A stretch of 64,000 nucleotides of DNA from the NCBI GenBank assembly GCA_944326605.1, contig CALVEM010000005.1:20447-84446 (forward strand). Reading direction: 5' to 3'. Below are positions 4,011 to 62,321 of the stretch, piece by piece. A model generated the notes under the pieces. The model was given only the letters and a program-made list of their open reading frames with translations. It did not search any database and was not told where the DNA came from. Positions within the stretch are counted from its first letter, which is position 1; every line of letters begins with the position of its first letter. The stretch is from Candidatus Gastranaerophilales bacterium. Lineage in GTDB: Bacteria > Cyanobacteriota > Vampirovibrionia > Gastranaerophilales > Gastranaerophilaceae. The translations under genes and the position numbers were made by a program.

Positions 4011-4163
4011 TATTCCCGCCTGATATAAAACTTTTAGCTAAGAATAATATAACATATATTTCTTCATTCTGCAAATATATGCTTAAAAAATAAAGTTTTG
4101 TGCTATCTTATTTTCTCTCTGAATTTATATAAGAGTCAAAATATTATAAATTTTACAAATAAA

Positions 4164-4266
4164 GAGATCCCGAAACAAGTTCGGGATGACATAAAAATGC
4201 AGATCGTCATGCTGAATTTATTTCAGCATCTCACTCGGGATAATGTGAGATCCCGAAACAAGTTTG
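4164..4266. repeat. Cluster of three REP-like palindromes (GTCATC..GAA.TT.TTTC..GATCTC family)
   Basis: Copies at 4164-4190, 4206-4232 (opposite orientation) and a degenerate one at 4247-4266. Confidence 0.85.
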
Positions 4267-5730: not shown

Positions 5731-5762
5731 GTGAATAGGTGAATGGGTTAATAAGTGAATAA
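5731..5762. repeat. Free 4x octamer array (GTGAATAA family)
   Basis: GTGAATAG GTGAATGG GTTAATAA GTGAATAA; same family as the array inside the pilin leaders. Confidence 0.75.
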
Positions 5763-5886
5763 GTCCTTTATAAAATAGATATTTGTGAAATTTTTGCAAT
5801 AAACATTTTATGAAATATTAATAAGATCGCACAACAAGTGCGCGATGACATAAGATTAAAATTATACTCCTATTAACTTATTTTCT

Positions 5887-6699
5887 TTATTCCGCTATAT
5901 TCGTATACGGCGAAACTGTCAAAGGTGCTGAAAGTTTCAGCTCAAACGTAGTTCCGTCGGGAATATTCACATCACGTCCTCTTTGCATTGCTCCGCGTAA
6001 TCCTCCGCCTAAAGCTCCAACACCGCCATAGATTAACATATTTCTTCCCCAGTCATCGCCGCCGCCAAGTGCTGTGAAGGCGGCTCCTATTAACATGGTT
6101 CCGAGAGCGCCGACAACAATATCTCTTGTCATTTTTTTAGCGCGTTCATTTTCCTCTTCCATATAAATTTTTTCTGTTGAAATATCAATCAGATTGCCGT
6201 CAGGAGTTAAAATTTGATTAAAACTGAATTCCACGGCGCCGCTTCCGTATGCATAACCTGCATTTTGCGCATCTGTAGCCGTGCCGTATACAAGACTTCC
6301 CGCAGGTGCTATTAAAACTCCGTTATATACAAAATTTTCAGTTAGTGTCGCTGTTAATCTGTCGTCTTTTTCCAGACTGCCGGAATTTATTCCGGAATCA
6401 AAGGTGATTTTGAAAACAGTGCCGGCAGGAATTTGAACAACATTTCCGGTAAGGGTTCGGGGGGGGGGCGGCTCATAAGTATTATTTAAAATCTCTTCCT
6501 GTATAATTGGCGGATTATAATTCGTTCTGTCCTGATGTTCTCTTTTTTTATAAAAATTATTTTCAACCGGTGCGGATTGGACGGGCTGAAACCTTTTTCT
6601 GTCAAATTCCGCCTGTGCCTCATCGCTGAAATCATATTCAGCCAGAACAGGAAGTGCTAATATTTGAAAACTTATTAAGAGAGCCAGAATCTTTTTCAT
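5887..6699 (-). CDS. Secreted protein with glycine-zipper segment; contains an in-frame C10 tract
   Basis: Signal peptide MKKILALLISFQILALPVLA; IPAGT...IPAGS beta domain and GALGGGLRG zipper; C10 encodes EPPPPR. Confidence 0.7.
   Translation of the reverse strand: MKKILALLISFQILALPVLAEYDFSDEAQAEFDRKRFQPVQSAPVENNFYKKREHQDRTNYNPPIIQEEILNNTYEPPPPRTLTGNVVQIPAGTVFKITFDSGINSGSLEKDDRLTATLTENFVYNGVLIAPAGSLVYGTATDAQNAGYAYGSGAVEFSFNQILTPDGNLIDISTEKIYMEEENERAKKMTRDIVVGALGTMLIGAAFTALGGGDDWGRNMLIYGGVGALGGGLRGAMQRGRDVNIPDGTTFELKLSAPLTVSPYTNIAE
6459..6468 (-). repeat. Homopolymer C10 (G10 on + strand) inside a CDS
   Basis: Directly counted, 6459-6468. Confidence 0.9.
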
Positions 6700-6770
6700 T
6701 ATGTTTAATAATATACTAATTCTTGAATTATTACAATATCCCTGTTATAATCAATTGTGAATTTATTTTT

Positions 6771-6827
6771 GTCATCCTGAATTTATTTCAGGATCCTGAT
6801 AAGATTATGAAACAAGTTCAGAATGAC
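6771..6827. repeat. Inverted pair of REP-like palindromes
   Basis: gtcatcctgaatttatttcaggatcc followed by an inverted copy ending ttcagaatgac. Confidence 0.85.
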
Positions 6828-6875
6828 TAAGATAACGTAATATAGAAAATTTGGAAACGTATAAAGAGAGTAACA

Positions 6876-12662: not shown

Positions 12663-12692
12663 GCAGGTTATAGTATTCAGAAAGGAGTAGTT

Positions 12693-13915
12693 ATGAAAAG
12701 ATTATTAGAATTAATTGAAAGTTTCGGGGGGGGGGCTTTGTAGGCTCCGCCGGAGGCAAAGAAGCAGCTAGAAGCAAAGATGCTAAGAGGCGAAGATGCG
12801 AAGCAAGTATCATTTACGTCATCCTGAACTCGTTTCAGGATCTATTAACTAGAAACAAAGATGTCAAGAGGCGAAGACGCGAAGCTAATATCAATAATAA
12901 CTTATGTTGCAATTTTCCCAAAATAACTATAAATGAATACCCTTTGCAAAGTGAGCGCTCTCCATTCAGTGAGTGTGCTACGCACGTAGTCCTGTCGAAT
13001 AATTCATGTCAATTCTCACTAAATTATTGTGAGGTTAGTGCTCACCCATCCGGCACGATGTGCCACCTTCTCCCGCACAGGGGAGAAGGAAATGAACTTC
13101 TAAAACACGGAGGTCAATCCGACGTTCATGAGATGCTGAAACAAGTTCAGCATGACATGTTTAACTTTTTGAAACGAACTTATTCACTTATTAACCTATT
13201 TACTTATTCACCTCGTAAAAGCGCAGCATTTACGCTAGCAGAGGTTCTCATCACCCTCGGTATCATCGGTGTTGTTGCCGCTATGACTATGCCTGTTTTA
13301 ATCGGGAATTACAGGAAAAATGTTGTTGAAAATCAATTGAAAACTGTTTATTCATTAATTTCAAATGCTGTAAGAATGGCGGAGATAGATAACGGAGAGG
13401 GGTTTATGTTCGCAGTCGGCGAGGAGTTTGATAATGATAAGAATAATAATTCTTTTGAGCAGAGTGAAGCTGTATTTAATGCATATTTTAGAAGATACTT
13501 TAAGATAATTAAGGATTATCCAAAAAACAATGACATTTTTCTATCACGCGGATTTACTAAAAACAGCACAGCAACTGATGAAACAAATTATGCAAAATGC
13601 GTTCAGTTAGCTAACGGAATTGCATTATGTTTTTTCCCGAAGGGTGGAAATAGGGGACAATTTATTGTTTATTTAAATCCTGATAAGAAAAATAAAATAG
13701 ACGGCCGAGATGTGTTTGCATTTCGTCTGTCAAGAGATAGAGGTGCGTTCTTTCTATCACAAAACCTTGATGTTTCAAGAGAAAAATTAATTGAGGGTTG
13801 TGTAAGTTCAGATCCGCATCCAATAAGTACGGATTTGCTTCGCCCGGATGTATGTACTTTCTTAATAATGCAAAATAATTTTGAAATACCTGATGATTAT
13901 CCGGTAAGTTTTTAA
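12693..13915 (+). CDS. Type IV pilin/pseudopilin-like protein, locus A, frameshifted at G10 (putative phase OFF)
   Basis: ATG 12693 reads MKRLLELIESFGGGAL*; the frame of ORF 12944..13915 is stop-free back to the G tract; G11 or G8 fuses them; AAFTLAEVLITLGIIGVVAAMT at 13223 onward. Confidence 0.85.
12726..12735 (+). repeat. Homopolymer G10 at codons 12-15 of pilin locus A
   Basis: Directly counted. Confidence 0.95.
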
Positions 13916-20364: not shown

Positions 20365-20416
20365 ATGTTGGTCATATGATAAATTCATGTATAGAATAAA
20401 AGCAAGTCTCATTCAT

Positions 20417-20535
20417 GTCATCCTGAACGTCAGATTGACCTCTGTGTTTCAGGATCTCTTAACCGGAAGTAAGGACGCAAAGAGGCATAGATGCAAAGCT
20501 AATATCAATAATACATTATGTCGTAATTTTACAAA
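20417..20535 (+). repeat. Orphan copy of the pilin-leader module (REP palindrome with loop insertion + octamers + AAGCTAATATCAATAAT block)
   Basis: Matches 12818-12920 and 38729-38800 but no pilin gene follows. Confidence 0.75.
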
Positions 20536-20551
20536 ATTACCAGTGGTAATC

Positions 20552-22407: not shown

Positions 22408-22447
22408 TAGGACGTTAAGACTATAAGACGCTAAGGCGATAAGTCTT
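22408..22447. repeat. Octamer tandem array (TAAGACGN family)
   Basis: TAGGACGT TAAGACTA TAAGACGC TAAGGCGA TAAGTCTT; a sister array lies at 54544-54575. Confidence 0.7.
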
Positions 22448-24050: not shown

Positions 24051-24889
24051 TTAATAATCTATTTTCCCTTTAGTGAGTATTGTAACACCTCTGCCCCAGC
24101 CGTTCGGATCATCTACTCTTGCGGTTGTATCTTCATGCCCTCGTGGTATAATCCCGTTTTGTGTAATATAAAAATCAAAAATGTCATATCCTACAGTATT
24201 AGGATTTTTGGTTCCGTTTACATCAACACGAATTCTTCCGCATCCGATAGGTTTTTTAAGTTCTGTTGTCCCTGTGCAGCTGCTGTTAATATGATAAAAA
24301 CGTAACGTTGCTCCGTCAGGAGTAGTGAGAGTTGAGCCAGTATCCCCATTCACAATAGTCCCGTTAAGATGTTTATACGAATCAACATAACATCTGGTTA
24401 TTTCTTCACTTGTTCTGCATACCTTAACATTTTTAATATATTTTGAAAAAACATCAATATAACTGTTATCTGATGTGAATACACCCTCTACAGTGCCTCC
24501 GTTATCGTTTGCTATCATCATATAAGCCTGCGAAATAACAGAATAAGCTTTTTTATACTGTGCAACAAGCTCCTTTTTCTGCGTATTATTTATAATAGTA
24601 GGCATAGTCATAGCGGCAACCACACCGATAATACCGAGTGTGATGAGGACTTCTGCTAAGGTGAAAGCGACTTTTTTACGATGTGAATAAGTAAATAAGT
24701 GAATATGTGAATAAGTTCGTTTCAGGAAAATATTAATGTCATCCTGAACTCGTTTCAGGATCTCTTGAACGCCGGATTGACCTTCGGACTTCTTAACCTC
24801 CGTCAGTCTTAACTTTAAAACCCTGTAACCCCTTGTTACATCTTTATCCTGTTGGGGGGGGGGCAACTCAGAGCTTCTCTGTTAAACAT
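24051..24889 (-). CDS. Type IV pilin-like protein, locus B, frameshifted at C10 (putative phase OFF)
   Basis: GGAG RBS, ATG 24889 reads MFNREALSCPPPNRIKM*; C11 or C8 joins it to QQDKDVTR...VAFTLAEVLITLGIIG. Confidence 0.85.
24854..24863 (-). repeat. Homopolymer C10 (G10 on +) at codons 9-12 of pilin locus B
   Basis: Directly counted. Confidence 0.95.
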
Positions 24890-25278
24890 ATTCCAACTCC
24901 TTCTTTTTTATTTTATTATTTATGATTTTTTAAGGTTTGTCAAGTTGCTTCTCAATGATAAATAAAATCTTAGTTTAGTTTTGAAGGTTATAAAATCTCA
25001 TGCATTTAAAGGATAAAATCTTCAAAAATATAGTTTATTCTAATAATGTACATCAAAGGCATGCCAAAAAGTATAAAAGGCATGGTGTAAAAGGGACAAT
25101 ATTACAAAATATTAACCAAACTTGAAGAAATGTTAAAACTGCTCAAACCATGATGTCATCATGGTTTTCAGGGAAAAAATATCAGCGGGAAGAGGTTAGA
25201 AATAAAAAAGTTGTCCATACATGATGTATAGAGTACAATTAATACTATATTCAACTTCTTGTAGAGGTAGGATGATTA

Positions 25279-26614: not shown

Positions 26615-27271
26615 ATGGATAAGATAACATTTTTACAAAAAAGAAGAGTTGCTTTTACACTTGCGGAAGTTCTGGTGACACTCGGGATAATCGGAGTTGT
26701 ATCTGCGATGACCGTTCCTACATTAATGCAAAATCATCAGCGCAAGGTTTATGTAACGCAGCTGCATAAGGTTTATAATGAGATGCAGCAGGCTGCGATT
26801 AATTTAATGAACGACAGGAATGCAGTAAATTTAACCGAAGCAGGTATAAATTCAACTGCTACAGCTCGAACGCTTGTTACAAGTAATTTCAATATTATTC
26901 AAACATGTACTAACTCTCTTACACCTTGTTTTGCGGATGCATACAAGTTTGTGGACGGAACGAATTATGATATATCAGCACACATTGCTACTTCTTATTC
27001 ATTGTCAAGCGGCGCTGCTGTCAGAATGCTTTACTCTAAAGAGAATAATAATAAAATTGTGAATATTCTGGTAGATATAAACGGCTCACAAGGTCCAAAT
27101 ATTATCGGCAGGGATGCTTTTTATATGGCTTTGTATAATAACGGAACTATTGATACTTATAATGGCAGTGCGACTTCACTCCCGTTAACTGAAGAACAGC
27201 GTGAAGGCGCCGGCTCTGAGTGGGGACCTTTCGGACGAATTCTCAACGATAACTGGGAAATGAATTATTAG
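26615..27271 (+). CDS. Type IV pilin-like protein with short leader (intact)
   Basis: MDKITFLQKRRVA|FTLAEVLVTLGIIGVVSAMT; family motif VDINGSQGPNIIGRDAF. Confidence 0.92.
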   Translation: MDKITFLQKRRVAFTLAEVLVTLGIIGVVSAMTVPTLMQNHQRKVYVTQLHKVYNEMQQAAINLMNDRNAVNLTEAGINSTATARTLVTSNFNIIQTCTNSLTPCFADAYKFVDGTNYDISAHIATSYSLSSGAAVRMLYSKENNNKIVNILVDINGSQGPNIIGRDAFYMALYNNGTIDTYNGSATSLPLTEEQREGAGSEWGPFGRILNDNWEMNY

Positions 27272-38655: not shown

Positions 38656-39758
38656 ATGGAAAAGTTTGTTAAGAGATGTGAATTCGGGGGGGGGGCGTTG
38701 TAGGCTCCGCCGGAGGCAAAGACGCAATTAGATGCGAAGAGGCTAAAAGGCGAAGATGCAAAGCTAATATCAATAATAACTTATGTTGCAATTTTACCAA
38801 AATAACTATCAATGAAAGCCCTCTGCAAAGCGAGCGCTCCCCATTCAGTGAGTGCGCAAATCAGCCCTCACCCCATCTCTCTCCCATAGGAGAGGGAGTA
38901 ATCTGTCATCCCGAACTTGTTTCGGGATCTCAAGAGATGCAGAGCCGCCGAGGTCAATCCGACGTTCAGCATGACATTAATATTTCCCTGAAACGTACTT
39001 ATTCACCTATTCACTTATTTTCTTATTCTCCTCGTAAACGCGCAGCGTTTACACTCGCTGAGGTTTTAATCACCCTCGGCATTATCGGTGTGGTTGCCGC
39101 GATGACTATGCCTGTACTTTTTGCGAAATATCAGCATAGGGTTTTAGAGACCGCTTTTAAAAAATCTTATGCAAATCTTTATAATGCCGTGAATTTGACA
39201 ATTTTTGAACTTGGTGCACCCAATATGGCTTCTAGTTTTATTGCTTATAATGATAATGAGTTTTATGTCAGTGTTTACAATAAATTAAATACTATTGAAA
39301 CAATATCGGAAAAATACTATTCGACAAAAATTGATCTTAAAGGTTATACTAAAAAATCTATAAAGGGTGCATCTCCAACACAATCGCAAACTCGAATTGG
39401 ACATATACTGGCAGATGGGAGTGCAATCGGCGGAATGAAAAATTCAGGCGGCTGGTATTTTACAATAGATACAAACGGACCCCAAAAAGGTCCGAATGCA
39501 TACGGACATGATATTTTTATATTTGTCATTAAATCTGCGAATTCACCGAGATTGGAGGCTGTTGACAGAGAGCTTGCCCACAAGACTGATGATGACGGAA
39601 ATTCCTTTACTCCCGATGATGGTGCATATTTTGAAACTTCTCGAGAATGCAGCAAAACCAGCACAAAATTATCTAACGGTTTTGGCTGTACTCCTTATGC
39701 CGTAAAAAATATTTGTCCTGATGACAGCTCAAAGACATACTGGGAGTGCCTGCCTTAA
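38656..39758 (+). CDS. Type IV pilin-like protein, locus C, frameshifted at G10 (putative phase OFF)
   Basis: ATG 38656 reads MEKFVKRCEFGGGAL*; the frame of ORF 38937..39758 is open back to the tract; G11 or G8 fuses them; AAFTLAEVLITLG; IDTNGPQKGPNAYGHDIF. Confidence 0.85.
38686..38695 (+). repeat. Homopolymer G10 at codons 11-14 of pilin locus C
   Basis: Directly counted. Confidence 0.95.
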
Positions 39759-54474: not shown

Positions 54475-54921
54475 AATATTAATATATTATATTATTGGTA
54501 TCTTGTAAATATACTTTACATAATGCGTGTTATTTGAAGTCTATAAGACTATAGGACGTTAAGACGATAAGTCATTACGGTGCGCGAAGCGCACGTAAAA
54601 TAAATAAAGCGACGATAACGGAACGAGCAATAATTGCAGGCGAAGCAAACTTCAAAGGCGTGTATTGTTTGAGCGGTAAAGAGATTCTGAAACAAGTTCA
54701 GAATGACGGATTATATAGCGAGTTTACACGCCTGTATGCTGAGCCTTGCAAATTATTAGCGAGTGAATGTGTGTCGCCGGTTTGCGTCGCTTTTCCGCAA
54801 AAGCGACCGCTGTGCGCGCAGCACCCGCCGGAGGCAAAGAAAGTACGATAGTTTGTTTTTAGTTGCCGATAACACGCATTATTCAAATATTAAATTTGTA
54901 TAAAGATTGTAAAAAATACAC

Positions 54922-57751: not shown

Positions 57752-58930
57752 TTAATTAATAAAGTCTCCTGTCGCATCATAATTTATATAATTTAATTTT
57801 TCGTCAGTTAATACTGATTCTATTTTTGTATGCCAGTTGCTAATTTTGTTGTTAGTAATAATAAAACTATAGGCATCGGCGCCGAGCTGATTTGGACCTT
57901 TAAGTCCGTTAGCATCAATAAACATTACCCCGCATTGTTTTTGATAAGTTTCTGTTGTTTCGTAACCTCCGTTGCCGTCAGGAATCCAGTTGCCATCTGC
58001 ATCTGTAACTTTATTAGTAAATATTCTTCCGCATTTACTATCTCCGCCTACATAAGGATTTATTGCGATTATAGAGCCATCGGCAAGTACAGCTTTAGAA
58101 TAATTTTTAATTGAATGAGTGGCATTTTTCCCTTTGCCGTCATTGTATGCTTTCGGATATTTATAATACTCCGGAGCACAGCCTGATGAGCCAGGTTTAC
58201 ATATTTGAGCAGTATTTAAATATGAAAAAAATTCATTAACTAACTCATCTTTTGTTTTTGTTTGAATAAATATATCTGCATAATCGTATGCCCCTTCATC
58301 AAATTTCCACCTGTTCATAGCATTCAGAACTGTAGAATATGTTTTTTAGTTTGAGTAGCAAATACTTTATTTTTATAATTTGCAATTAACGCAGGCATAG
58401 TCAATGCCGCAACAATTCCGATAATTCCAAGGGTGATTAAAACCTCAGCCAAAGTAAATGCGGTGTGACGGACATTGTCAGTGGTGTCTACGTGCGTAGC
58501 ACCTTCTGCTAGAGTAAACGCGACTTTTTTATGGGGAGAATAAGTAAATAAGTGAATAGGAGAATAAGTTCGTTTCAGGATCTTATGAGATCCCGAAACA
58601 AGTTCGGGATGACGGATTGCTGCCTCTCCTATGGGAGAGAACTGGGGTGAGGATTGATTTTCACCCTCACCTTTACTTCCCCTCCCCTCAAGGGAGGGGA
58701 TATTTTTTTCTCCTCTCTCCCCAAAGGGGCGAGAGTTAGTGTGAAGAAACAGCGTAGCCGTTCCATCCGACACACGGATTTTGCATGAATTTTTCAGGTC
58801 ATTCTGGGCGAAGCGAAGAATCGCATTACCGTCACGATTATGCGAATGCCTTAGCTCTAAAACACTGTAATCCCTTGTTACATCTTTATCCTGTTGGGGG
58901 GGGGCAACTCAAAGCTTCTCTATTAAACAT
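57752..58930 (-). pseudogene. Type IV pilin-like protein, locus D: C9 frameshift in the leader plus a second frameshift at A6 in the mature domain
   Basis: GGAGG RBS, ATG 58930 reads MFNREALSCPPPTG*; C8 or C11 opens the leader into ORF 58324..58773; adding one A at T6 58342-47 joins it to ORF 57752..58318 (KKTYSTVLNAMNR; IDANGLKGPNQLGAD). Confidence 0.85.
58896..58904 (-). repeat. Homopolymer C9 (G9 on +) at codons 9-12 of pilin locus D
   Basis: Directly counted. Confidence 0.95.
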
Positions 58931-59030: not shown

Positions 59031-59852
59031 TTAAGGAAGGCAATCCCAGTATGATTTGCCTGAATTATCAGGACATTTGTTCATAAGTGCATAATACGCG
59101 CAGTAAAATCCGTTGGAATCGCTGGTATCTGTTAAAGAACATTTTTTTTCTGTTGATACATTATCTCTGTTTGATCCGTATCCCGGTTCATCTTCTTTAT
59201 AGTTTCTGTAAGTGAAAGTTGCTTCTACGGCACATGTATCTTTGTTAAGGTGTAACCCCCATATATCGTGTCCAAATCTGTTAGGCCCTTTCATTCCGTT
59301 TACATCTACTGTTATCAGTGTTCCTCCCCCATCGTCAGAAGAAGACGGGTGAGAACAAATGCCTATAAAACTTCCGTCATTTAGAATTGCCTGATAATTA
59401 GGACCCCAATGCCCTACATAGTTTTTATTTCCAATAAGACAATTCATGTGCAAATTATCATTGGCTTCTGCACCGGTAAAGGTATATTGTTTATAATTTG
59501 CCGGAGGAATTGTGTTAGCGGAATTTTGCCCTTCTTATTTTATTTTACCGGCAGCATTAAGTTTGTCATAAATAGTTCTTTTTATTTCTTCGGTTTGTTC
59601 AACATTACAGTTATTATATTCATATTTAATAGTAGCTGCTACCTGACTTAAAACAGAGTAATGTTTTTTGAACTGTGTTTCCAGAACCTTATGTCTATAA
59701 TTTGCGGTTAATGTCGGTATAGTCATTGCTGCAATAACACCGATGATACCTAGGGTAATTAATACTTCTGCTAATGTAAATGCTGCTCGCCGGATATTGT
59801 CAAAGTGAACTACTTGAGTAGTACATTCTGCAAGAGTAAAGTCTGTATTCAT
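59031..59852 (-). pseudogene. Type IV pilin-like protein, locus E, with a single in-frame TAA
   Basis: ORFs 59535..59852 and 59031..59453 share a frame; the only interruption is TAA 59535-59537, followed by 27 sense codons; VDVNGMKGPNRFGHD and YWDCLP end. Confidence 0.85.
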
Positions 59853-60190: not shown

Positions 60191-60261
60191 AGGCGACACC
60201 CAGATTCGAACTGGGGATAAGAGCTTTGCAGGCTCCTGCCTTACCACTTGGCCATGTCGCC
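60191..60261 (-). tRNA. tRNA-Cys (GCA)
   Basis: GGCGACA acceptor, TGGCCAAGTGG D-arm, CTGCAAA anticodon loop, GTTCGAATC T-loop. Confidence 0.95.
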
Positions 60262-60355
60262 TTATTCGTTTCTTTATAATAAAAGAGACATAATAAAAAG
60301 TCAAGGTAAGTATTGGGAACTTATATAGCAAATTCCACTAAAAATGGCTAAAATT

Positions 60356-60417
60356 GTCACCCTGAACTCGTTTCAGGGTCTCGCAGTTTTGAGATGCTGA
60401 AACAATTTAAGCATGAC
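60356..60417. repeat. Inverted pair of REP-like palindromes
   Basis: gtcaccctgaactcgtttcagggtctc and gagatgctgaaacaatttaagcatgac. Confidence 0.85.
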
Positions 60418-60504
60418 AGTATTACGCATATTTAGTGGAAACTTGTATATTATTCCCTTTTATCGACTATTGACATAATTTTTATATACTGCTACAATTT
60501 ATGT

Positions 60505-62245: not shown

Positions 62246-62321
62246 GGGCGATTAGCGCAGTTGGTAGCGCACCACATTGACGTTGTGGGGGTCACGTGTT
62301 CGAGTCACGTATCGCCCACCA
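62246..62321 (+). tRNA. tRNA-Val (GAC)
   Basis: GGGCGAT acceptor, CCACA-TTGACGT-TGTGG anticodon arm, GTTCGAG T-loop, encoded CCA. Confidence 0.95.

Follow-up and report, generated by a model that had tools for sequence, protein, structure and literature searches.

Repeat-filled, stop-free leader stretches behind homopolymer tracts in a pilin-like gene family of a human-gut Gastranaerophilales bacterium

Why should a gene for a pilin-like protein carry, directly ahead of its prepilin site, an open frame made up of repeat DNA? The question is raised by locus A of a 64,000-nt window (the whole stretch of DNA that was analysed), where an interval free of stop codons (12736-13228) lies between a run of ten guanines (G10, 12726-12735) and the prepilin site A↓FTLAE (the arrow marks the cleavage position) and contains two oppositely oriented REP palindromes, a GC hairpin and octamer arrays. 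A first-pass annotation had listed these elements and had read the leader as an in-frame safe haven in which selfish repeats accumulate; every listed item is present where it had been placed, and the observation is confirmed.

The candidate true start of locus A (plus strand) is an ATG at 12693-12695 behind the SD sequence AAGGAG (12682-12687), from which MKRLLELIESF is encoded before the tract. At a tract length of ten this ATG stands in -1 phase to the pilin frame, one base out; with G11 (or G8) it would be in frame and specify a 179-aa leader. The automatic ORF listing begins the gene at TTG 12944, not at ATG 12693. The stop-free mosaic ends with the Ala(-1) codon (13226-13228), and Phe(+1) follows at 13229-13231. 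Its parts are a distal purine-rich octamer array of period 8 (12759-12811, units like AAGAGGCG or AAGATGCN); a REP palindrome (12817-12842) with a CGTC tag, an 8-bp stem (ATCCTGAA/TTCAGGAT) and a 5-nt loop, read in the pilin frame as VILNSFQD (..YVILNSFQDL..); a second octamer array (about 12853-12886); a GC-rich hairpin (13066-13089) whose 9-bp arms, CCTTCTCCC/GGGAGAAGG at 13066-13074 and 13081-13089, are 100% complementary and are read as LLPHRGEG; an inverted REP palindrome (13130-13157) with its TGTC tag on the minus strand, read as MLKQVQHD (..HEMLKQVQHD..); and a proximal array of four ACTTATTC-like units (13180-13211), translated as RTYSLINLFTYS, of which a free copy lies at 5731-5764. 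The mature pilin-like protein (FTLAEVLITLGIIG..., 228 aa and a stop codon, 13229-13915) matches N_methyl (PF07963, 24.5 bits, cut-off 21.2) and DUF6613 (PF20318, 27.4 bits, cut-off 24.3). In the AlphaFold model of locus A the leader has a pLDDT of 26-43 (no confident fold) and the pilin part one of 70-92, with a long N-terminal helix (residues 170-237, pLDDT 80-92) and a beta-sheet head; a Foldseek search of the PDB with the whole model as query gave no match at E <= 0.001.

Three further loci in the window are built in this way. Locus B (24051-24891, minus strand) has an SD-ATG (MFNREALS), a C10 tract (24854-24863) and a 71-codon open leader before the pilin, with a minus-strand REP at 24738-24762 encoding EILKRVQDD. 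Locus C (38656-39758, plus strand) starts at ATG 38656 and has a G10 tract (38686-38695) and a 121-codon open leader before the pilin, with a REP at 38904-38929 encoding HPELVSGS (CHPELVSGS at 38905-38929). In locus D (57752-58930, minus strand) the SD-ATG and a C9 tract (58896-58904) precede a 149-codon open leader that holds a REP (58587-58613, RHPELVSGS), a duplicated AFTLAE pseudo-site and a 9-bp, 100% complementary hairpin (58678-58686/58692-58700); a frameshift divides its mature part. At locus A 169 open codons lie upstream of the cleavage site, and at all four loci the open frame begins 4-18 nt ahead of the homopolymer start. Locus C matches N_methyl at 26.1 bits, and locus B and the locus at 26615 fall just below the cut-off, at 20.6-20.8. 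The same kinds of repeat also lie free in the window: REPs are intergenic at 4162-4264 (three units), 6765-6832, 20399-20536, 36458, 54679-54709 and 60355-60418, and octamer arrays recur at 22408-22444 and 54536-54580 in addition to the copy at 5731-5764. A scan of the window at Rfam gathering thresholds returned two tRNAs only, and no known RNA element within the leaders.

We took a census of the whole genome of this Candidatus Gastranaerophilales bacterium (human gut, 2.05 Mb). The motif (A/G)↓FTLAEVLITLGIIGVVAAMT occurs at 109 sites, giving 109 pilin-like N-termini, 72 of them with a G/C tract. About 70 genes share one design, in which an SD-ATG, some ten codons, a G/C homopolymer, the leader stretch and (A/G)↓FTLAE precede a pilin-like protein of 200-250 aa; the SD-ATG lies 22-72 nt upstream of the tract in 71 of the 72 tract-bearing loci. 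The leader stretch measures 7 to 235 codons (20-691 nt) with no preferred size. Dozens of these genes have leaders of 100-235 amino acids, the 55 long-leader loci have 34-230 codons between tract and site, and 28 of the genome's pilin paralogues have ordinary short leaders.

Stop codons are nearly absent from the leader frame: its 6364 codons contain 5, whereas the two remaining forward frames have 545 and 411 and the reverse ones 387-433. The five are confined to two loci, leaving 69 of 71 leaders stop-free; one locus accounts for four of them and is in the wrong phase as well. Once the tract is subtracted, 67 of the 71 loci have an ATG-to-site distance of 1 modulo 3 (p = 2e-27). In 69 of 72 loci the opening of the pilin frame lies 3-76 nt ahead of the tract, and both off-frames are closed 1-16 codons from it in nearly all. 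Stop depletion and frame conservation, without which the first-pass annotation would have given up its reading, are both present, and they extend to differences between strains, where all five leader indels are multiples of 3 nt (-78, +81 and +3 at locus A; +117 and +27 at locus C, whose allelic leaders remain open). Among the 55 long leaders, 15 have no in-frame ATG and 38 no SD-bearing start (8 lack ATG, GTG and TTG alike), and internal initiation is therefore no general alternative to the upstream start.

The processing signals are equally well kept. Gly/Ala(-1), Phe(+1), Glu(+5) and the hydrophobic helix are intact at every locus, and a prepilin peptidase homologue (Peptidase_A24, 34.8 bits, above the cut-off) is encoded at G000:C1:233147-233536. 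The leaders are hydrophilic and basic, with a net charge of +1 to +19 and no TM-like segment; in a test for selection on charge all three forward frames were net positive, so the pilin frame does not stand out in this property, and forward and reverse leader frames are told apart only by the lack of hydrophobic segments in the former. A hydrophilic, positively charged leader with an Ala/Gly end, followed by F-T-L-x-E and some 20 hydrophobic residues, is what class III signal peptides have in common with the sequences described here. The prepilin leaders of the T4b type and of Streptococcus sanguinis have about 15-30 residues, and class III leaders run to tens of residues at most, unlike the 179 residues of locus A and the genome-wide maximum of about 245. 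Leaders of this class are known to differ in length, up to the extremes of the longer T4b type and the 'very long' one of S. sanguinis, and in type IV pilins they are cytoplasmic and cleaved there (PMC10191384).

We propose, and consider it probable, that the stretch is a translated, disposable leader behind a tract switch, filled with the genome's repeats under a filter for stops and phase only. Translation would begin at the far upstream ATG, and the pilin would be reached only at an in-frame tract length (11, 8 or 14), so that the tract would switch the gene on and off at the level of DNA. Everything up to Ala(-1) would be made as an N-terminal leader, would stay in the cytoplasm and would then be removed by prepilin peptidase. 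If its amino-acid sequence is irrelevant, the only constraints would be the absence of stop codons and a length in the right phase, and so weak a filter would let CGTC/TGTC-tagged REPs, GC hairpins and octamer arrays fill the leader, the REPs persisting in three stop-free orientation/frame classes and larger modules passing between paralogous leaders in one frame. What the sequences show directly is the anatomy, the lack of stops, the constant phase, the repeat densities, the in-frame strain indels, the tract-length alleles, the relaxed dN/dS and the absence of a confident leader fold; the translation, cytoplasmic location, cleavage and neutrality of the leader we infer. A 180-aa leader nearly doubles the cost of making a subunit, which counts against the proposal.

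The REP palindromes give the clearest view of such a filter. The genome contains 210 members of the family and a shuffled genome none; 134 copies are intergenic, 60 lie in leaders, 14 in crudely called coding sequence and 2 in mature pilin parts. Leaders hold 2.2 of them per kb, intergenic DNA 0.58 and other CDS 0.008, about 270-fold below leaders; since 'other CDS' is a crude longest-ORF gene call, in which most matches fall in spurious-looking ORFs of 80-130 aa or upstream of likely true starts, the other-CDS densities are upper bounds. Equal abundance of the repeats in other coding sequence, named beforehand as fatal to the safe-haven reading, is thus not what the genome-wide count returned. 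That REPs are translated in different frames and orientations had also been noticed, and the family at large bears this out: 59 of the 60 leader REPs fall within the only three orientation/frame classes that are stop-free (binomial p = 1e-16), read as VILNxFQD (19), HPELVSGS (13) or ILKRVQDD (27).

In structure, 91% of the 210 copies carry a TGTC (134) or CGTC (58) tag; the stems, whose pairing was a search criterion and hence no independent result, are of 8 bp (ATCCTGAA, ATGCTGAA, ATCCCGAA and similar) and start with AT in 191 copies; the loops are of 5 nt (CTTGT, CTCGT, TTTAT), and the 3-nt tails are CTC (115), CTT (44) or CTA (26). Close pairs share one inverted polarity in 29 of 34 cases and are never direct, and convergent spacers hold 1.0 REP per kb against 0.43 in divergent ones. 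Two PF01797 (Y1_Tnp) genes are present in the genome, but REPs are missing from the 1-2 kb or so around both, whereas RAYT-mobilised REPs (REPtrons) flank such a transposase gene. The CGTC-tagged REP super-family, with RPE-4 and RPE-6 among its members, has a terminal CGTC (TGTC allowed), a stem of 8-9 bp starting with complementary A/T, a loop of 4-5 nt and a CCA-type tail; it is mainly intergenic, often in inverted dimers of one polarity, is enriched after convergent or unidirectional genes, and lacks a dedicated transposase (Di Nocera et al. 2013, PMC3733652). With their CGTC/TGTC tag, AT-initiated 8-bp stem and 5-nt loop the palindromes described here have most of its defining features, the CCA tail excepted, and the precedent of the Rickettsia palindromic elements, to which the first-pass annotation had appealed, is upheld. 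Those elements, in work of Ogata and colleagues from 2000, were reportedly inserted in frame within genes. As with them and other intragenic REPs, a mainly intergenic family also lies in frame inside intact genes, only frame-keeping insertions surviving. The inserts of Rickettsia and Opitutus, however, are dispersed among numerous unrelated proteins, whose mature forms they lengthen by 20-50 residues, whereas here the repeats are nearly confined to the class III leader of one gene family, with several types stacked to 100-235 residues.

Leaders are the genome's most repeat-dense compartment, other CDS being 22- to 270-fold poorer, and they look like the sole coding region that tolerates such DNA. 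Of leader DNA 63% is covered by 14-mers that occur at least 5 times, compared with 14.6% for intergenic DNA and 2.8% for other CDS; leader-like DNA makes up 0.10% of other CDS versus 5.3% of intergenic DNA; 8-nt arrays are about 10-fold commoner in leaders than in intergenic DNA; and the GC hairpin family has 18 intergenic, 7 leader and 1 CDS copies. Array boundaries are fuzzy in TRF, so the array lengths modulo 3 are uninformative. Of same-orientation matches between leaders, 98% share the frame, which indicates that most leader DNA spread as paralogous blocks and not by independent insertion; modules hold one order and one frame across loci, and the 25-nt REPs alone occur in several orientation/frame classes. 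The safe-haven reading is therefore largely sustained by the frame filter on REPs and by the compartment bias, but its independent insertion does not extend to the larger modules, which are same-frame paralogous blocks, and an accumulation of selfish repeats is shown for the REPs only. To judge from these patterns, most leader DNA spread by gene duplication, by unequal crossing-over between octamer arrays and by gene conversion between leaders. The roughly 4-fold higher density of REPs in leaders than in intergenic DNA exceeds what passive tolerance predicts, and suggests targeting, hitch-hiking or function.

Function is the substance of an alternative that we regard as unlikely, namely that the leader repeats are useful, either as homology blocks for recombination or conversion among some 100 paralogues, or as mRNA hairpins and spacers that set expression, stability or slippage. 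It can claim the REP and 8-nt-array enrichment just given and the constant order and frame of the modules. It can also claim the strain alleles: in two strains the allelic leader of locus C is a mosaic, parts of which match other G000 leaders better than their own locus (C9:12573-12783, 95%), and the recombination between loci that had been suggested from the window gains support from it. At locus A the breakpoints of the deletion and duplication fall in octamer arrays, and the REP at 12817-12842 is present in 0, 1 or 2 copies among strains; gain and loss by units of 78-81 nt bounded by octamer arrays point to recombination rather than transposition. REP-free congeners, moreover, still have leaders of 30-40 codons behind the tract (a small sample). 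Recombination, however, is the expected by-product of any dispersed repeat, and a useful leader is hard to square with a length that varies from 7 to 235 codons around no favoured size, with the 28 short-leader paralogues, or with one DNA element read as three unrelated peptides. In two other species pilins 83% identical to that of locus A manage with a 26-aa leader and no tract. The relation of REP load to leader length across genomes is mixed: beside the REP-free congeners just named, genome G039, with 72 REPs, has short leaders in the 7 pilin loci sampled (again few), a point against the repeat-filled leader as we propose it. REP copy number ranges from 0 to 166 among 41 genomes of the order and from 0 to 46 among sampled congeners. 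Between strains the dN/dS of the leader is 0.56-1.5, near 1, and that of the mature pilin 0.04-0.26, with values of 0.09-0.53 given by locus A, ratios that rest on few sites and at locus C include non-homologous module replacement. A broader conjecture, more doubtful still, is that class III leaders are a general repeat refuge in gut lineages with large pilin families, co-opted here in that the shared repeat modules and the unvarying N-terminal coding block would serve as homology arms by which about 100 paralogues swap 5' switch cassettes and heads, and which together with the poly-G tract would yield combinatorial surface variation.

The proposed tract switch would make the disposable leader a conditional product. 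Tract lengths range from 7 to 16 and are exactly 10 in 74 of 92 tracts (80%), lengths of 9, 10 and 11 giving phase offsets of 1, 2 and 0. Of the 71 loci in this assembly 58 are G10 and out of frame, 7 are G9 and only 4 are in frame, and at strain level out-of-frame G10 prevails again, in 27 of 30 assemblies; on these counts most leaders would seldom be made, which speaks against the proposal. That G10 merely reflects a cap in assembly was ruled out by the 7-16 range and by the agreement of three assembler naming styles. Tract alleles were compared among consensus metagenome assemblies of the same loci: at locus A 8 other assemblies have G10 and one has G9, and another locus is G11 in 2 assemblies, in frame with intact 389-aa ORFs, and G10 in 8 others. 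At the latter locus a further contig, L058, has a different leader. A naturally in-frame allele lies at G000:C12:43238-44407 (protein P0001), and full-length in-frame products are found in public protein sets (P0006, P0007).

The preponderance of G10 feeds two rival explanations, both improbable in our judgement. According to the first, the extension is translated and not disposable, being either a retained basic cytoplasmic tail or part of silent, decaying copies kept open by recent conversion from a few active genes. The 58 G10 and 7 G9 loci, the second frameshift in the mature part of locus D and the locus with four stops in the wrong phase accord with decay, and prepilin leaders of such length have not been described, the 'very long' ones of a recent review being those of the S. 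sanguinis major pilins (PMC10191384). Set against this are the purifying selection on mature parts between strains, the 69 stop-free leaders, the existence of in-frame alleles, and the intact (A/G)↓FTLAE and helix everywhere in a genome that encodes a PilD homologue. According to the second, G10 with its -1 offset is a site of programmed recoding, by RNA-polymerase slippage or -1 ribosomal frameshifting, such that about 60 genes are constantly expressed at a low level and their leaders are always made. As a slippery site a run of G is perfect, and length 10 occurs in other genera too, with the -1 offset every time. Yet in-frame G/C10 tracts occur in non-pilin genes, which makes 10 look like a mutational attractor length; G9, G10 and G11 are DNA alleles at the same loci; and, as read from the sequence, no conserved strong stimulator structure stands at a fixed distance after the tract.

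A DNA-level switch of this kind has relatives elsewhere, and in the genome studied here tracts are carried by many surface-structure genes and some glycosyltransferase-like genes. Homopolymer contingency loci include Neisseria pilC, with poly-G in the signal-peptide region, and the poly-G genes of Campylobacter jejuni (PMC8355987, PMC5084427). The pilin loci resemble these in that a G/C run in the 5' coding region decides the frame and one-base alleles of one locus differ between samples; they depart from them in that some 70 paralogues of one family carry the tract within 2 Mb, 80% of tracts at length 10, and in the length of translated spacer that separates the switch from the functional protein, a feature not known from those systems. 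A literature search returned no paper on repeat-filled, tract-switched pilin leaders.

It is, finally, highly improbable that the stretch is ordinary non-coding upstream DNA, with a pilin start near the site and a frame left open by repeat composition: the start at TTG 12944 in the ORF listing, the internal codons used by gene callers on public assemblies and the paucity of stops in the homologous frame of free module copies (27 against 179 and 224, partly ascertainment) favour it, but it is already contradicted by the 387-545 stops that this DNA carries in its five remaining frames, by the start-codon lack in 15 of 55 leaders (8 even without GTG or TTG), by the phase kept at 67 of 71 loci with a frame that opens at the tract, by strain indels all in multiples of 3, and by the 13-fold higher stop frequency of those free copies (27 per 2960 codons versus 5 per 7073 in leaders, p = 2e-10).

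The disposable-leader reading has consequences beyond this window. These genes are mis-started or split by gene callers, and in consequence about 70 genes for surface proteins are mis-annotated in each genome of a common lineage of the human gut; whether they are on or off cannot be seen in standard annotation. One locus type joins in-frame repeats of the REP/RPE kind, poly-G contingency switches and the expansion of a pilin family, and lets selection on 'junk' within genes be followed in a natural experiment that is unusually clean, since only stops and phase are policed; were the combinatorial conjecture true, it would be a surface-variation system in a commensal relative of the cyanobacteria. 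If translated, these leaders would exceed every reported prepilin leader by a wide margin, and would make plain how little needs to be specified in a leader of class III. The only conserved sequence among them is the array-encoded piece RTYSxIxLFTYS.

The leader of locus A, a pilin-like gene, extends over 493 nt (12736-13228, plus strand) with zero stops in the pilin frame. It is preceded on the same strand by the SD sequence AAGGAG (12682-12687), an ATG at 12693, then ten codons, and a G10 run (12726-12735), and it ends at a prepilin site with the motif AFTLAEVLITLGIIG, in which Ala(-1) occupies 13226-13228 and Phe(+1) begins at 13229. In this and the other long-leader genes the prepilin site is the predicted cleavage position; at locus A the motif gives a Pfam N_methyl match and the head of the same protein matches DUF6613, while the automatic ORF call begins only at TTG 12944. 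The leader holds a REP, a CGTC/TGTC-tagged palindromic repeat, read as VILNSFQD (12817-12842, plus strand), an inverted REP read as MLKQVQHD (about 13130-13157, minus strand), a 9-bp GC hairpin (13066-13089) and an octamer array with free copies elsewhere (13180-13211, plus strand). Further REPs lie in three other pilin loci of the window, B (24738-24762), C (38905-38929) and D (58587-58613), and a second 9-bp GC hairpin at 58678-58700; every peptide and element quoted in the first-pass annotation was found in place in the window sequence. The window has a G+C content of 35%, and the parent genome (G000; 2.05 Mb in 26 contigs) looks, judging by sample names, to be of human-gut metagenome origin.

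Across this genome there are 109 pilin-like N-termini, and at 72 of them the 900 nt upstream contain a run of seven or more G or C; this tract lies 20-691 nt (median 271) from the prepilin site, and 55 loci, those where the interval is 90 nt or longer, form a long-leader set of 6364 codons. The first-pass annotation had looked to stop-codon depletion and frame conservation in the leaders, and both are evident. The pilin frame of the long leaders contains 5 stops, all confined to two loci, against 545 and 411 in the other forward frames and 387-433 in the reverse frames, and the other two frames shut 1-16 codons past the tract in nearly all 55 loci. An SD-ATG lies 22-72 nt upstream of the tract at 71 of the 72 tract-bearing loci, the pilin frame opens 3-76 nt ahead of the tract start at 69 of them, and the ATG-to-site distance minus the tract is 1 mod 3 at 67/71 (p = 2e-27). 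Within the long leaders themselves, 15/55 have no in-frame ATG, 8/55 no ATG, GTG or TTG, and 38/55 no SD-preceded start of any kind. Since the stretch remains stop-free and keeps its phase all the way from the distant ATG, we infer that the leader is translated, for which the evidence is strong but indirect. A second pilin-like class (AFTLAEMMVVMLILS..., at G000:C2:50151, C2:31564, C7:7579 and C13:21021) also has G10 tracts and open leaders of 81-109 codons, three members having 620-652 residues past the site and one 241. A tract or leader lies at or close beside the end of several contigs (G000 C7:5, C8:80, C5:152250, C7:111174 and C20:26274; ONAT22 contigs L058-L062), as repeat-rich gene starts break short-read assemblies, and the locus count is therefore a lower bound.

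The tract is relevant to the leader only as the marker of its start. Of 92 G/C runs, 74 have length 10, and length 10 goes with an offset of -1 (58 loci), 9 with 1 (7 loci) and 11 with 0 (2 loci). Independent metagenome assemblies carry G10 at locus A in eight cases and G9 in one; locus C has G10 in 11/11 sequences compared. At a groES-adjacent locus, G11 is found in G000 and one other assembly and G10 in eight others, one further contig having a different leader; the G11 allele gives an uninterrupted ORF of 389 aa (protein P0001), and public proteins, for example P0006 and P0007, include in-frame full-length products. We interpret this pattern as slipped-strand switching that favours tracts of 10; as an alternative, the G10 run may be a site of programmed slippage. 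In-frame G/C10 runs also occur within non-pilin genes, at 6459-6468 of the window (gene 5887-6699, minus strand) and at G000:C2:120805, C3:13884, C4:50277, C2:3445 and C2:27094, among them genes for a TrbI-like secreted protein, a glycosyltransferase-2-like protein and a 1003-aa protein, so the preferred length is not peculiar to the out-of-frame pilin loci. Slipped-strand switching may thus extend to other surface or glycan genes.

The elements that fill the leaders had been described as also lying free in intergenic DNA, and this holds for REPs, GC hairpins and octamer arrays alike. With an 8-of-8 stem and a conserved core as its definition, the REP family numbers 210 copies genome-wide against 0 in a shuffled genome: 60 in leaders (27.6 kb, 2.2 per kb), 134 in intergenic DNA (232 kb, 0.58 per kb), 2 in mature pilin parts (73.6 kb, about 0.03 per kb) and 14 in a crude class of other CDS (1718 kb, 0.008 per kb), where they fall mostly in small spurious-looking ORFs or upstream of likely true starts. 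REPs are far from equally common in other coding sequence, and one family's leader, reaching 100-235 residues, takes nearly all in-gene copies. GC hairpins follow suit (0.25 per kb in leaders, 0.077 in intergenic DNA and 0.001 in CDS), and 8-nt arrays of at least 27 nt rank the compartments in the same order. Such arrays (ACTTATTC-like, CGTCTTAA-like and AAGAGGCG-like) are intergenic, as at 5731-5764, 22408-22444 and 54536-54580 of the window, and reach a ten-fold higher density in leaders. They are reminiscent of the heptamer STRR arrays known from heterocystous cyanobacteria, and the Gastranaerophilales are a sister lineage of the cyanobacteria. In a count made independently of the leader sequences, 14-mers with at least 5 copies account for 63% of leader sequence, 14.6% of intergenic DNA, 8.8% of mature pilin and 2.8% of other CDS. 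Of the leader nucleotides, 63% match DNA classed as intergenic, part of which consists of unrecognised or orphan leaders at contig ends.

A REP can be read without stops in two frames of one orientation (VILNxFQD and HPELVSGS) and one of the other (ILKRVQDD), the three remaining frames containing TGA. As the first-pass annotation had it, leader copies would be translated in different frames and orientations, and 59 of the 60 fall into these three stop-free classes (VILNxFQD 19, HPELVSGS 13, ILKRVQDD 27; p = 1e-16). Three unrelated peptides come from one DNA element, which speaks against selection on the peptide sequence as such. The larger modules show another pattern: of 2238 leader-to-leader matches in the same orientation, 2197 are also in the same frame, the modules being shared through descent or exchange and not through independent insertion. 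Stops in the homologous frame number 27 in 2960 codons of free module copies vs 5 in 7073 of leader copies (13-fold, p = 2e-10), the direction expected of relaxed constraint, the low absolute rate being partly ascertainment. The proposal that leaders are an in-frame safe haven for palindromic repeats is thus partly supported, as tolerance of repeats under a filter on stops and phase, and gives way where it implies independent insertion of the larger modules. Very probably the leader is translated and weakly constrained, tolerating repeat DNA under this filter, and most of its content spreads as same-frame blocks through duplication and recombination.

Strain comparisons capture such changes. 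In the locus A leader, strain differences comprise the loss of 78 nt, the duplication of 81 nt and the insertion of 3 nt; the deletion takes away, and the duplication adds, one REP with neighbouring octamers, and both have breakpoints within octamer arrays. At locus C (38656-39758, plus strand) the middle of the leader is replaced in two strains (net +117 and +27 nt) with the frame open throughout, and the replaced segments are closer to leaders of other G000 loci than to the allelic one (95% to C9:12573-12783), a sign of gene conversion among paralogous leaders. Each of the five strain indels has a length divisible by 3. Pairwise dN/dS comes to 0.56-1.5 for the locus A leader, 0.28-0.42 for the groES-side leader (4-5 differences only) and 0.04-0.26 for mature parts, with 0.53 in one small comparison. 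Two other species have pilins 83% identical to that of locus A with a 26-aa leader and no tract; the pairing of tract and long leader recurs in several genomes of the same genus and in further species of the order. Of 41 genomes sampled from the order, 29 carry the REP family (range 0-166 copies, G000 richest; 0, 0, 3, 8 and 46 in sampled congeners), a burst-like distribution. As the two REP-free congeners have the tract with leaders of only 30-40 codons in the loci sampled, but REP-rich G039, another genome of the order, has short leaders in 7 sampled loci, repeat load adds to leader length and does not alone set it.

Judged by the Di Nocera et al. criteria (PMC3733652), the palindromes are CGTC-type REPs: they share the CGTC/TGTC tag (91% of copies), an 8-bp stem beginning AT with a 5-nt loop, inverted dimers of one polarity and enrichment in convergent spacers, but have the tail CTN where the super-family has CCA. 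This super-family includes Rickettsia RPE-4 and RPE-6 and has no known transposase; intragenic REPs are on record in several species (PMC3733652). Two Y1_Tnp (IS200/RAYT-like) genes of G000 (176-187 aa; C6:51422-51952 and C4:32014-32577) have zero REP copies nearby. A full-text literature search found no paper on repeat-filled pilin leaders; new here are the place, the putatively removable leader of a single gene family, and the scale.

The 55 long leaders (34-230 residues past the tract) are hydrophilic, with a maximum 19-residue Kyte-Doolittle mean of 1.58 vs a median of 2.3 for mature parts. Net charge is positive in 55/55 (+1 to +19), which is no evidence of selection because all three forward frames are positive. 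An AlphaFold model gives pLDDT of 26-43 at leader residues 1-133 and 70-92 in the pilin part, a long N-terminal helix with a beta head; this hints at a leader without a fold, weakly so because the alignment is shallow (22 homologues). In a set of 5.8 billion proteins, leader-like peptides occur in 62 clusters whose recorded Pfam domains are N_methyl and/or DUF6613; 22 of the 62 are without a Pfam domain and none is named. The genome encodes a prepilin peptidase homologue, and the class III leader remains cytoplasmic and is cleaved there (PMC10191384), which would explain why a long leader need not disturb export.

Within some leaders (window 58461-58520 and 59783-59850, minus strand; G000:C1:42553; L028 and L079) a pseudo-site, AFTLAE followed by GATHV..., precedes the real AFTLAEV site. 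Its junction carries a 12-nt palindrome, CTACGCACGTAG, 10 of whose 12 genome copies lie within leaders, and could be the scar of an insertion that hit the FTLAE codons or of recombination between pilins. The pilin-like genes at locus D (57752-58773) and 59031-59852 are split, with 45 and 82 open codons past the N-terminal motif and the remainder in another frame, and look like decaying or doubly switched copies. Two tRNA genes (60191-60261, minus strand; 62246-62318, plus strand) are the sole Rfam matches within the window, and REPs at 60355-60418 adjoin the first.
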